This document shows, piece after piece, positions 177-5,931 of a stretch of DNA of 12,094 nucleotides. How positions within the stretch are numbered: position 1 is the stretch's first letter; each line of letters starts with the position of its first letter. Source of the DNA: a virus (Duplodnaviria; Heunggongvirae; Uroviricota; Caudoviricetes); the IMG/VR virus record IMGVR_UViG_2802429253_000011; one strand, 5' to 3'. The notes beneath the pieces were generated by a model, which saw nothing but the letters and a program-made list of their open reading frames with translations, was not told where the DNA came from and ran no database searches. The position numbers were made by a program, and so were the translations under genes.

Positions 177-683
177 TTATCGCCCACGCACTACCAGTGC
201 CTGATCCAACTCCCGATATGCCTCAACCAGTTTCTCCAGAGAAACTCGACTTAAACCGCTGGGATTCGGCAATACCCAAATCTGCGTCGAACCAATGGTC
301 AGCGTTTGTTTCCCCCACTGCACGCCTCGCTGACTGAATCCCTGTTCATACGCCTGCTTACCCAGAATCGCCAACGCCTGCGGCTGATAATTCTCAATTT
401 TTTCAATTAGCTTGCGCCCACCTGCGTGCAATTCCTGCTTTGACACTTCATTAGCCTGCACCGTTGGCCTGTCAACCAGTTTGGTGACGCCACAACGATA
501 ATCCAGCAGATGCTGCGCTTCCTGCGGCTTCAACTGACGGTCGGTAAACCCGGCCTGATAAATCACCTTCCAGAAGCGATTCGCCGGATGGGCAAACGGA
601 AAACCAGACTCCGCGGAAGAAAGACCCGGATTGATGCCACAAAACACCACACGCAATCCTGGCGCAAGAATATCGTCAACCAT
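177..683 (-). CDS. mug: G/U mismatch-specific DNA glycosylase Mug (uracil-DNA glycosylase family 2), 168 aa
   Basis: Translation from the internal Met ([23 protein letters not shown]...[14 protein letters not shown]...LVVRGR) matches E. coli Mug almost residue for residue as recalled. ATG at 681-683 is preceded by AGGAG; stop TAA at 177-179. The track ORF 177..782 adds a 33-aa upstream extension that runs into the tRNA promoter region and is not supported. Confidence 0.9.
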
Positions 684-769
684 ATTAACTCCTGAACAAC
701 ACAACCCGCAGGAAGTATAACGAATTGAAAACACATTGTTTATAAAAACAGCAGCCGCGCGGTAATGGC

Positions 770-798
770 TGGATTGCGACACGGAGTTACTTTATAAT
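770..798 (+). promoter_or_regulatory. Probable sigma70 promoter of the tRNA gene
   Basis: TATAAT at 793-798 followed by a GC-rich discriminator (CCGC) about 10 bp before the mature tRNA 5' end at 809; -35 region is weak. Confidence 0.35.
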
Positions 799-808
799 CC
801 GCTACCAT

Positions 809-884
809 GGCCCCTTAGCTCAGTGGTTAGAGCAGGCGACTCATAATCGCTTGGTCGTTGGTTCAAACCCAACAGGGGCCACCA
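809..884 (+). tRNA. ileX: tRNA-Ile2 (anticodon CAU, lysidine-type; ileX/ileY class), 76 nt including encoded CCA
   Basis: Cloverleaf readable by eye: acceptor GGCCCCT/AGGGGCC, D-arm GCTC-AGTGGTTAG-GAGC, anticodon loop CTCATAA (CAT at 842-844), T-arm GTTGG-TTCAAAC-CCAAC, 3' ACCA. Overall sequence resembles E. coli ileX rather than Met/fMet tRNAs. The position next to mug matches the K-12 ileX locus as recalled. Confidence 0.85.
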
Positions 885-892
885 TATCTATC

Positions 893-929
893 AAGGGGTT
901 ACGTTAACAGCGTGACCCCTTCGTTTTTT
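893..929 (+). terminator. Intrinsic terminator of the tRNA gene
   Basis: Stem AAGGGGTTAC (893-902) / GTGACCCCTT (912-921) with one mismatch, 9-nt loop, followed by CGTTTTTT (922-929). Confidence 0.6.
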
Positions 930-1425
930 CTAGGATACCTATAGGATACCGTGACAGAGTATAAGCAGGTATAAAAACAACAAGTTACGCAACATCATAC
1001 CTGTCATGAAACTTTAACTATCCGACATGATAGCTGGTCGATAATCACGGATAATCCGTTATGTGGATCCCCATATCGGCATCAGGCCCACCAGCGTGAA
1101 GCGTTTTTCATTTTTCGCGGGTATAAAAAATCGATGGGGCTGGCAGTCCGGAAGACGTCAGGGTACAGAGATTTGACCCGCCCCTCCCTGTGCATGGGCA
1201 CAATAAGTAACCGAAGGCGGAATTCCGCCCTCGGTACTCACATATGAGAAACGATATTTCTTCCTCTGATAACCAAAATATGGGTATCACAAGTAACCCC
1301 CAAAATCTGGGTGTTGCTCTTACTACCCAAACTACGGGTAGTTTCCGTAATTTCATGGTCGAGTTGCAGATCTGCAACTCACCCACCAGCCAACGCAATT
1401 TTGCGTTATCGGGAATATCAGCAAG

Positions 1426-1713
1426 TTACCGCCGCAGCCGTTCCGGCTTCTTCCACTGGTAAGTATTTTTCGCGCTCTCCCTCCGTTGTTGAGAACGGCG
1501 ACGGTATGCCAGCAACTCAAGAACTCTGGTTCGTATGTTGCGCATATCCACGCCGTTAAGCTCAATACCGTCACGGCGCATCACCTCAGCCACCACACGC
1601 GCGTAATTTTCAGCGGTGACTGTATCCGGCTGCGCGGCCTGTTCGTCAGCCAACTGGCTGATTCCACCAGCACAGCGGATTAATCGCAGTATTTCAGATT
1701 CGGTCATTATCAT
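1426..1713 (-). CDS. Hypothetical 95-aa protein, translationally coupled to the TerS-like gene
   Basis: Its ATG (1711-1713) overlaps the TGA stop (1710-1712) of the upstream gene in an ATGA arrangement. No family recognised. The basic C-terminal tail may be read-through of non-coding DNA, so it could be a 5' fragment. Confidence 0.4.
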   Translation of the reverse strand: MIMTESEILRLIRCAGGISQLADEQAAQPDTVTAENYARVVAEVMRRDGIELNGVDMRNIRTRVLELLAYRRRSQQRRESAKNTYQWKKPERLRR

Positions 1714-2421: not shown

Positions 2422-2466
2422 CCCAAAAAAGGCGACTGTCACTATTGTTTATGCTCCATGAGCGAC

Positions 2467-2488
2467 AAAACCGCCCGCAGGCGGTTTT
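2467..2488 (-). terminator. Intrinsic terminator (bidirectional) after the gpI-like gene
   Basis: Perfect hairpin AAAACCGCC-CGCA-GGCGGTTTT, 18 bp beyond the gpI-like stop (2506-2508), T-runs on both sides. Confidence 0.6.
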
Positions 2489-2505
2489 ACATAAAACGTT
2501 TTGTA

Positions 2506-3177
2506 TCAGCGACCAATCACCACAATCTGGCCGCCATCCCCTTCGTCTGCCGTGCTGATCTCCTGAGAGACCACCCGCGACCCCACGCGCATTTCACCGT
2601 ACAGAACGGGCAGAACATTGCCCTGGGCAACCATGTTATCCAGTGAGGAGAAATAGGTGTTCTGTTTGCCGTTATCTGTACTTGCTGCCGTGGGCGTCCT
2701 GGCTTTCGGTGCCAGCATCTGCGCCACACCACCAAGTACCATACTGGCACCGAGAGAAAACAGGATACCGGTCATACCACCGGCCCCAATGGCTGCCCCC
2801 CATGCTGTAAGGGTGGCTCCGGCGGTAAAGAATGATCCGGCAATGGCGGCTGCTCCCAGGACAATCTGGAATACACCACCTGACTTGGCCCCGGCGACTC
2901 TGGGAACAATATGAATCACAGCGCCATCAGGCAGAGTCTCATGTAACTGCGCCGTTAATCCGGACGTGCTGACATCCTGCCCGGCAATCCGTACCTGATA
3001 CCAGCCGTCGCTCAGTTTCTGACGAAACGCCGGGAGCTGTGTGGCCAGCGCCCGGATGGCTTCGGCCCCCGTTTTCACACGCAGATCGATGCGGCGGCCA
3101 AATCGTTGTAAATCCCCGTAAAGGCAGATGCGTGCCATGCCTGGTGACGCCAGAGGGAGTGTGTGCGTCGCTGCCAT
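2506..3177 (-). CDS. Lambda tail-tip assembly protein I (gpI) homolog, 223 aa
   Basis: Translation MAATHTLPLASPGMARICLYGDLQRFGRRIDLRVKTGAEAIRALATQLPAFRQ... with a Gly/Ala-rich hydrophobic C-terminal half matches lambda gpI as recalled, nearly identical over the full length. ATG at 3175-3177, TGA at 2506-2508. Confidence 0.7.
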   Translation of the reverse strand: MAATHTLPLASPGMARICLYGDLQRFGRRIDLRVKTGAEAIRALATQLPAFRQKLSDGWYQVRIAGQDVSTSGLTAQLHETLPDGAVIHIVPRVAGAKSGGVFQIVLGAAAIAGSFFTAGATLTAWGAAIGAGGMTGILFSLGASMVLGGVAQMLAPKARTPTAASTDNGKQNTYFSSLDNMVAQGNVLPVLYGEMRVGSRVVSQEISTADEGDGGQIVVIGR

Positions 3178-3266
3178 TTGTCGGTATACCTCTCTCGTTT
3201 GCTCAGTTGTTCAGGAATATGGTGCGGCAGCTCGCCGCCCCACGTGTTCAAAGTACCGCCTTGTTG

Positions 3267-5511: not shown

Positions 5512-5698
5512 ATAAATATCCCGCCATCTGAACACGTTTTGACACAGGCAACTCCACCTGGCAGGTGAAAAACAGATTTATTTATATATTTCAATTAATT
5601 GCAAACTGGTCTAATGACAGGGAGAAAAAAATATTGTACAGGTGAAAACAGAAATAACTTTTAATTATCAATAAATTATCACACATGCTGCCGCCGCC

Positions 5699-5771
5699 AT
5701 GAAAATGCAAAAACCAGCCTTTTTCCGCGCCGCTCCCGCCCCGTGGCAGGTCACTACACCGGGAGGACCCA
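5699..5771. repeat. Copy B of the 73-bp direct repeat (partner at 2349-2421)
   Basis: Differs from copy A only at 5715, 5751, 5755 and 5756. Abuts the terminator at 5772-5795. Confidence 0.8.
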
Positions 5772-5795: not shown

Positions 5796-5931
5796 TCTGT
5801 CACTCGTTGCTTAAAACGGTATGTTATCCCCGTACGGATCATCATTCCCCGCCTGTTGTTTTGGTGTGCTTCGCTGTCATAGGCTTTATCTCACAGCAGT
5901 AAATTAAAATTTTTGCGTTTTAACCCTTCAC

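Follow-up and report, generated by a model that had tools for sequence, protein, structure and literature searches.

The stretch of DNA analysed here, hereafter the window, covers 12,094 nt and begins with the E. coli gene mug and the tRNA-Ile2 gene ileX (anticodon CAT), which are followed by a PICI-type phage satellite of about 11 kb. The empty site has the order mug-ileX-nfeF, with nfeF lying directly after the tRNA in K-12-like genomes, and in the window, as in 56 complete genomes of E. coli, the two are separated by an island. A near-identical island occupies the same site in strain 143, where about 10.7 kb separate the tRNA from nfeF and a tyrosine integrase is encoded at the far end, adjoining nfeF. 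The island genes, all on the minus strand, include orf95 (phrog_1561), a DUF1441 small terminase (TerS), a copy of the lambda tail gene I, a fusion of a ClpP protease with a major capsid protein, a D5/P4-type primase and the integrase. Virion and packaging functions in the window amount to one capsid/protease gene, one TerS and gpI, with neither lysis genes nor a complete virion module in the island, which in its size (within about 10-15 kb), its flanking att sites and its combination of integrase with primase/replicase agrees with the Gram-negative PICIs. The island is thus a Gram-negative PICI-type phage satellite inserted in tRNA-Ile2. The available part of PMC10111431 mentions tRNA-Ile2 PICIs that carry a CLP_protease gene and distinctive integrases, so that insertion site, integrase context and ClpP-protease/capsid gene are all alike; there, these PICIs are treated as targets of helper-embedded PICIs, and that part of the paper does not describe their att arms, cos or the conserved element dealt with below.

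Positions 930-1425, between the tRNA and orf95, represent the integrase-distal end of the island. It is very probable that this interval is a string of separate cis-acting modules and not one structure, the modules being an attP arm, a cos site, a hairpin and a conserved element designated D (Table 1), which is an ordinary layout for such islands. A sequence-only reading had drawn attention to a tandem repeat, a 14-bp palindrome and a 20-bp palindrome in the interval, and all three are present. The palindromes GGCGGAATTCCGCC (1216-1229) and GAGTTGCAGATCTGCAACTC are the only perfect ones of at least 12 bp in the 12-kb window. In 300 dinucleotide-preserving shuffles of the window, perfect palindromes of 14 bp or more occurred 0.75 times per shuffle, meaning that the 14-mer alone is not significant, and neither is the tandem, since an exact repeat of at least 9 nt at a spacing of 10-12 bp was seen in 45 of the 300 shuffles (15%). 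Palindromes of 20 bp or more appeared in three of them (1%), and the 20-bp palindrome is the sole flagged motif improbable by chance. The tandem and the 14-mer are nevertheless taken as real because comparison with relatives validates both.

The same reading had called the interval ORF-free, which holds for annotated or recognisable genes (RefSeq shows no annotation between the tRNA and a 94-aa gene in the strain 143 island) but not for mechanical ORFs, four of which (96, 72, 82 and 73 aa) overlap it. That one of them encodes a small protein, either the 72-aa ORF at 1244-1462 (plus strand) or the 96-aa ORF at 1108-1398 (minus strand), is highly improbable. Both frames exist, the plus-strand frame is open across element D in the capsid-forming PICI (cfPICI) L017, and one relative has suffered a 9-nt in-frame deletion; yet the two longest ORFs of the interval match no PHROG or Pfam family, no Shine-Dalgarno sequence precedes the ATG at 1244, and the 10 variable positions of D have no third-codon-position bias, about three of the 10 falling there whichever frame is taken. 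With neither family matches nor a codon-phase signal, coding potential was rejected for the interval.

Table 1. Features of the mug-ileX junction and of the integrase-distal island end (window coordinates).
Feature	Position	Strand	Basis or remark
mug	177-782	-	E. coli gene
tRNA-Ile2 (ileX; anticodon CAT)	809-884	+	ARAGORN, Rfam, RefSeq 'tRNA-Ile'
att core ACTCATAATCGCTTGGTCG, 19 bp	839-857		identical in attL and attR; crossover within
Distal attP arm (predicted), specific to the present integrase	858-1054		sequence shared with other-integrase islands starts at 1055
Island-borne tRNA terminator	889-930	+	hairpin 893-921 plus T-run; terminator scan
Two putative arm-type integrase sites AGGATACC	932-939, 943-950	+	inside 21-mer AGGATACCTATAGGATACCGT (932-952)
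Imperfect palindrome CCGTTATGTGGATCCCCATATCGG	1056-1079		repeat search; terS-proximal side of cosN
cos site (predicted), HK97-like HNH-dependent group	1103-1193	-	homology to phage HNH-terS intergenic region
Predicted cohesive end (cosN) GGGGCTGGCA	1136-1145	-	reads TGCCAGCCCC on the minus strand
GC-rich hairpin with 14-bp palindrome	1210-1235	-	terminator-like in terminator scan
Element D (core 1299-1380)	~1255-1385		conserved, satellite-specific, ~130 bp
Inverted repeat GATAACC-N7-GGGTATC	1268-1288		in D
Three ACCCA-N5-TGGGT-like dyads	1272, 1299, 1326		in D
AAACTAC-GG-GTAGTTT dyad	1329-1344		in D
20-bp perfect palindrome GAGTTGCAGATCTGCAACTC	1361-1380		in D
Small hairpin AACGCAATTTTGCGTT	1391-1406	-	20 nt after the orf95 stop; read from sequence
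orf95 (phrog_1561)	1426-1713	-	last gene of island packaging operon; PHROG match 1e-52

The insertion was mapped by aligning attL (from the window and from the related locus L001), attR (L001) and an empty site (L002). The block common to attL and attR extends from the anticodon loop of the tRNA to the start of its T-arm. An att junction had been expected within 930-1425, to be checked by comparison with an empty site, and that comparison places it elsewhere, the island beginning at the core inside the tRNA gene. Because the crossover falls within 839-857, all DNA from 858 onwards, and with it the entire interval, belongs to the island. The resident ileX is consequently a hybrid, with 809-857 of chromosomal origin and the last 27 nt (858-884) supplied by the island. 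The T-arm reads GTTGG..CCAAC in the window versus GCTGG..CCAGC in the empty-site gene, a C-G pair of the T-stem having become T-A in the island copy, where the T-loop is altered as well; this T-stem change is compensating, so that the hybrid tRNA still folds. The tRNA terminator that had been taken as the left boundary of the interval, that is, the hairpin and T-run at 893-930, is itself island DNA and differs from the terminator of the empty site.

By comparison with related islands, positions 858-1054 are the predicted distal attP arm, which in the excised circle would adjoin int. Islands that carry other integrases and reside at the clpS-cspD site (for instance L003) are similar to the window from 1055 rightwards but not to the left of that point, and they have a tandem motif of their own, AACTACACC, in both arms. 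The tandem of the window reads in full TAGGATACC at 931-939 and 942-950, 11 bp start to start, and the 21-mer containing it recurs unchanged in the integrase-proximal arm, upstream of int and about 120 bp from the core, followed 30 bp further on by a third, inverted copy, GGTATCCT (both within L001 ~30608-30658). A repeated motif distinct from the core is therefore found in both arms, and it co-varies with the integrase, being kept with orthologues and replaced with other integrases. In Kluyvera and Leclercia, whose integrases are 74-77% identical to the present one and are likewise encoded at ileX, CGGTATCCTATAGGTATCCTGGAGC precedes int within flanks that have diverged, and an Aeromonas integrase with 63% identity is accompanied by a variant motif, ATATCC, three times at 11-bp spacing; in these three genera the comparison covers the int-proximal arm, the other island end lying beyond the 10-kb flank. 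The AGGATACC tandem is accordingly best read as a pair of putative integrase arm-type sites, and the earlier expectation of recombinase arm sites in the interval agrees with how it behaves. An IHF consensus, TATCAAGGGGTTA, is located at 889-901, overlapping the terminator, between the core and the arm sites; it is a perfect match to WATCAANNNNTTR, of which the window has two against 0.66 expected, a number reached in 30 of 200 shuffles.

The organization recalls the P' arm of lambda attP, with its P'1-P'3 repeats and H' IHF site. In both cases short direct repeats distinct from the core are placed about one helical turn apart and 75-95 bp from the crossover region, further copies occur in the other arm beside int, and an IHF consensus, in the island a candidate site, stands between core and arm sites. 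The island differs from lambda in the motif of its putative arm sites (AGGATACC), in having its core within a tRNA gene, between anticodon and T-arm, and in replacing the 3' end and the terminator of that tRNA. Excision would link 858-1054 and the integrase-proximal arm by way of the 19-bp core; the arm-binding domain of the integrase would be expected to occupy the pair of AGGATACC sites in 858-1054 as well as the three copies of the other arm, with IHF bending the DNA at 889-901 in the manner of lambda-type intasomes. Outside the window, at L001 30598-30633, the inverted arm site is framed by an AAGCGAT...ATCGCTT inverted repeat, the right half of which (AATCGCTTG) repeats part of the att core sequence; near the int promoter, AATCGCTTG could be a candidate core-type site.

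The homology of 1103-1193 to phage cos regions is, as a matter of sequence comparison, the strongest result of the analysis. When 885-1430 was searched against 50,697 phage records, matches were confined to 1106-1188, which is 92-95% identical over 83 bp to SfII, ST64B and vB_EcoM-720R4 and 82% to phiP27, where the matching segment overlies a feature annotated 'cos-site'. Alignment widens the similarity to about 1103-1193, corresponding to most of the phage HNH-terS intergenic region on both sides of the cut. The phage group concerned comprises SfI, SfII, SfV, ST64B, phiP27 and vB_EcoM-720R4, and the cos of SfI, SfV, SfII, ST64B and phiP27 is 92-95% identical to that of the island over about 85 bp, both flanks of the cut site included. 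The annotated 10-nt cos of phiP27 aligns with 1136-1145. The termini of SfI were sequenced from virion DNA and showed a 10-nt gap, TGCCCGCCCC (PMC3636060), and the SfI record ends with this decamer; the homology is therefore to a cos with experimentally determined ends. Positions 1136-1145 are the reverse complement of the SfI end except for one central base (nine of the 10 match), and the conserved flanks extend about 30 and 48 bp on the two sides. GGGGCTGGCA is the commonest satellite variant of the cohesive end (18 loci), and GGGGCGGGCA occurs in six satellite loci as well as in SfII and vB_EcoM-720R4.

The surroundings of this segment are not those of the phages. Whereas in the latter cos lies between the HNH gene and terS, in the island it stands alone between the att arm and the hairpin, away from any HNH gene and terS/terL of the same system. 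Neither an HNH gene nor a P27-type terminase is present in the island, whose sole TerS is the DUF1441 protein, and because the matching HNH and terminase are lacking, the site would be used in trans by a helper. The TerS, TerL and HNH proteins of the helper would cut satellite concatemers at 1136-1145 and package them. Phage satellites P4 (helper P2) and SaPIbov5 (HNH-cos phages phi12 and phiSLT) carry a copy of the helper cos. The island resembles them in being a satellite that bears a helper-type cos but no matching terminase, so that the helper enzyme can cut and package its DNA; host, helper family and sequence are all different, and the island has, in addition, TerS and capsid genes along with cos copies that belong to another, unrelated type of phage. 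A packaging signal had been anticipated in the interval; it is indeed there as a predicted cos, although at 1103-1193 and in none of the flagged motifs, and was found only by homology to phage cos regions. The sequence-only reading is in this respect partly supported, right in kind as regards arm sites and packaging signal and wrong in their assignment. The analysis as a whole provides base-level coordinates, at this end of a satellite common in E. coli, for the crossover core, the putative integrase arm sites and the predicted packaging cut.

The imperfect palindrome CCGTTATGTGGATCCCCATATCGG is terS-proximal to cosN, in the place where the example of EcCICFT073 would lead one to look for a cosB specific to the satellite. 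An element like it is found in inverted orientation at 5847-5873 of the cfPICI L017, which has no HK97-type cos.

Besides this HK97-type site, the island contains two lambda-type cos regions at ~2292-2428 and 5645-5771, in the minus sense and each with a cosN-like core ACGGGGCGGGAGCGGCGCGG; an IHF consensus (5666-5678) is included in the second. Both segments match, at 82-89% identity, the sequence that precedes terS in the lambdoid phages phi458 and 606R10, and one of them is placed directly upstream of the island terS, as in phages. This brings the island to three cos-like sites of two unrelated types, a combination present in at least 12 of 69 related loci. The island TerS shares 65-70% identity with its counterparts in lambdoid phages such as phi458 and PhiR40_1 but about 52% with the mEp043 and mEp213 proteins, and the capsid fusion likewise matches the lambdoid mEp460/phi458 group. 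Among the records consulted for physical ends, only the start of the cdtI record falls inside the lambda-type cos match, and weakly; the end of the mEp043 record was discarded as a lambda-type cos end, since the record starts arbitrarily at terS, and ON470578 and ON470618, considered as packaged satellites, proved to be partial phage genomes; a third such record, CP025902, is unannotated. An unexpected cargo is the copy of the lambda tail-tip assembly gene I (gene 2506-3177, minus strand), which together with the 3' end of K occupies 2451-3237 at 94-96% nucleotide identity and is accompanied by no other tail genes in the island.

Functional cos sites have been demonstrated in E. coli PICIs, and one of these, EcCICFT073, has two lambda-type cos sites (PMC6092414, PMC6739421). 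EcCICFT073 and the present island are both E. coli PICIs with more than one cos site, in which the cosN/cosQ side is helper-like and the terS-proximal side island-specific. The published cos1 and cos2 of Gram-negative PICIs are, however, both of the lambda/phi80 type and work with Rpp, whereas one of the three sites of the island is of the HK97 type. An island-encoded Rpp, such as goes with the cos of the EcCICFT073 type, was not found when orf95 and a 190-aa TerS-like protein were compared with the PDB, which should hold the RppC structure of PMC6739421; neither matched a chain, and the 190-aa protein was dropped as an Rpp candidate on that account.

In these circumstances the HK97-type cos may be secondary or a relic. 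One could suppose that it was left unused after recombination with an HK97-like prophage, packaging being effected through the lambda-type copies with the island's own DUF1441 TerS and a lambdoid helper. The TerS, the capsid fusion and gpI do match lambdoid siphophages and not SfI-type phages, the ACGGGGCGGGAGCGGCGCGG core is present twice, once directly upstream of terS, the sister islands L004 and L018 lack any HK97-type cos, and the satellite cohesive end has a base change. Against this, the segment is 92-100% identical, at a fixed distance from element D, in about 24 of the 69 related loci (cfPICIs and islands with different integrases among them), it covers the phage intergenic region on either side of the cut, and the sharing of GGGGCTGGCA by 18 loci fits a maintained sequence better than random decay. 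A relic therefore seems unlikely, and conservation together with fixed position, in so far as sequence can tell, argues for the site being used. If all cos sites work, the island would be mobilisable by two different helper phage families. A type of island noted, in the available part of PMC10111431, only as the target of other satellites carries a helper-type cos, and this from a phage group other than that imitated by its capsid and TerS, a finding relevant to the presence of multiple cos sites in some PICIs. Two further readings, jointly a serious possibility that falls short of even chances, are that the satellite keeps cos sites of two unrelated packaging systems and that element D, nearly invariant and shared by cfPICIs and classical PICIs, is an undescribed cis-element or small RNA.

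Between the cos segment and element D lies the GC-rich hairpin, in which GGCGGAATTCCGCC forms the core of a 26-nt imperfect palindrome. As read on the minus strand it has 11 pairs, eight of them GC and one G-U, and a 4-nt loop AATT, a GC-rich stem-loop such as an intrinsic terminator would have. The flagged motifs had been held not to be terminators for want of a following T-run, and this is correct for the plus strand, where the hairpin also has an A/C mismatch, but not for the minus strand, on which the hairpin (1235 to 1210) runs into TACTTATTGT, an interrupted T-run that just passes the scan and is absent in L018. A homologue of the hairpin is present in about 47 of the 69 loci. Its stem is kept in L003, L004, L018 and L019, with the imperfect pair being A/C, G/T or G-C according to the island, though L019 has its better stem on the plus strand. 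Placed after the terS-orf95 operon and immediately ahead of cos, the hairpin may be assigned with moderate confidence as the terminator of that operon, the confidence going no further because the U-tract is weak. It would probably end leftward terS-orf95 transcription before the cos site is reached. The 14-mer is thus neither att nor cos but belongs to the stem of this hairpin, terminator-like when read on the minus strand.

In element D, columns 1255-1385 are at least 90% identical across 54 distinct sequences (IMG/VR and E. coli), a degree of conservation above that of the neighbouring orf95 coding sequence; 43 sequence variants of the element were recorded. Of 69 loci, 66 have D beside a homologue of orf95, 49-527 bp downstream of this gene. 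D is shared by cfPICIs and the present island family, accompanies several integrases, occurs whether or not the HK97-type cos is present, and is absent from the 50,697 phage records searched. D is hence neither att nor cos, and the same applies to the 20-bp palindrome, which is part of this separate element. The ACCCA-N5-TGGGT dyads are exactly 27 bp apart; the window has five matches to this pattern against 1.26 expected, three of them in D. Where D varies, it does so in loops or spacers, at the centre of the 20-mer and within the N7 of GATACCC-N7-GGGTATC, and a common variant of the former, GCAAATCTGC, breaks its perfect symmetry.

D is a conserved satellite element tied to orf95 and would act either as a structured 3' end of the transcript of that gene or as an array of protein-binding dyads, two readings that are about equally likely. 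According to the first, which is a real possibility though short of probable, D and the hairpin at 1210-1235 make up a structured 3' end of the RNA that is transcribed leftward from terS-orf95, and would work at the RNA level, be it as a 3'-UTR, as a processed small RNA or as a terminator region. The placement of D downstream of orf95, on the sense strand, in nearly all loci, the confinement of its variable positions to hairpin loops and spacers and the terminator-like hairpin that closes the region are consistent with this. The minus-strand RNA of D folds with -94.6 kcal/mol (z = -6.6 versus shuffles) and is the more stable strand in 52 of the 54 variants, a figure that comes from closely related sequences; the plus strand, as for any set of palindromes, reaches z = -6.2 too. 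Searches of Rfam, one of the whole window with gathering thresholds and one of 880-1450 with E <= 5, returned only the tRNA and three chance-level matches, so that D matches no Rfam family at these settings. Within the core, unpaired positions are as invariant as paired ones, D varies so little that no double compensatory changes can be scored, and the 20-mer variant of L018 keeps its pairing on the plus strand only. A tRNA-like or tmRNA-like nature was discarded, ARAGORN finding nothing there, and assignment of a strand from RNAalifold or from the asymmetry in folding energy was given up, the sequences being too alike and the flanks too heterogeneous to decide.

The second reading, which is tentative, sees in D a DNA-level binding array, made up of the three dyads and the 20-mer, for a satellite or helper protein, possibly the basic product of orf95, with a role in packaging or late regulation. 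The exact phasing of the dyads and their excess over expectation, the perfect symmetry of the 20-mer, an invariance above that of the neighbouring coding gene and the obligatory linkage to orf95 all point in this direction, as does a predicted C-terminal helix of the orf95 product that is rich in arginine and lysine. On the other hand, orf95 has no recognisable DNA-binding fold or family, the frequent GCAAATCTGC form is without perfect symmetry, and D is situated 120-240 bp from cosN on the side opposite to that of the phage terS, which does not correspond to a canonical cosB.

The constant partner of D, the 95-aa orf95, belongs to a narrow, enterobacterial family (36 clusters among 1.84 billion representatives). 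Its AlphaFold model consists of three helices (pLDDT 75), of which the C-terminal, arginine/lysine-rich one is long, and Foldseek gave no match to this model better than E = 1.8. A TerS-, Rpp- or HTH-like DNA binder was considered for orf95 and set aside, with no PDB sequence match and no Pfam family. The gene comes last in the packaging operon of cfPICIs and classical PICIs alike. In four IMG/VR loci (L028, L039, L056 and L075) D is found twice in tandem, the copies being about 434 bp apart. Between D and orf95, the small hairpin AACGCAATTTTGCGTT is a further recurrent feature, whose variants, such as ACCCATTTTGGGG, keep a stem.
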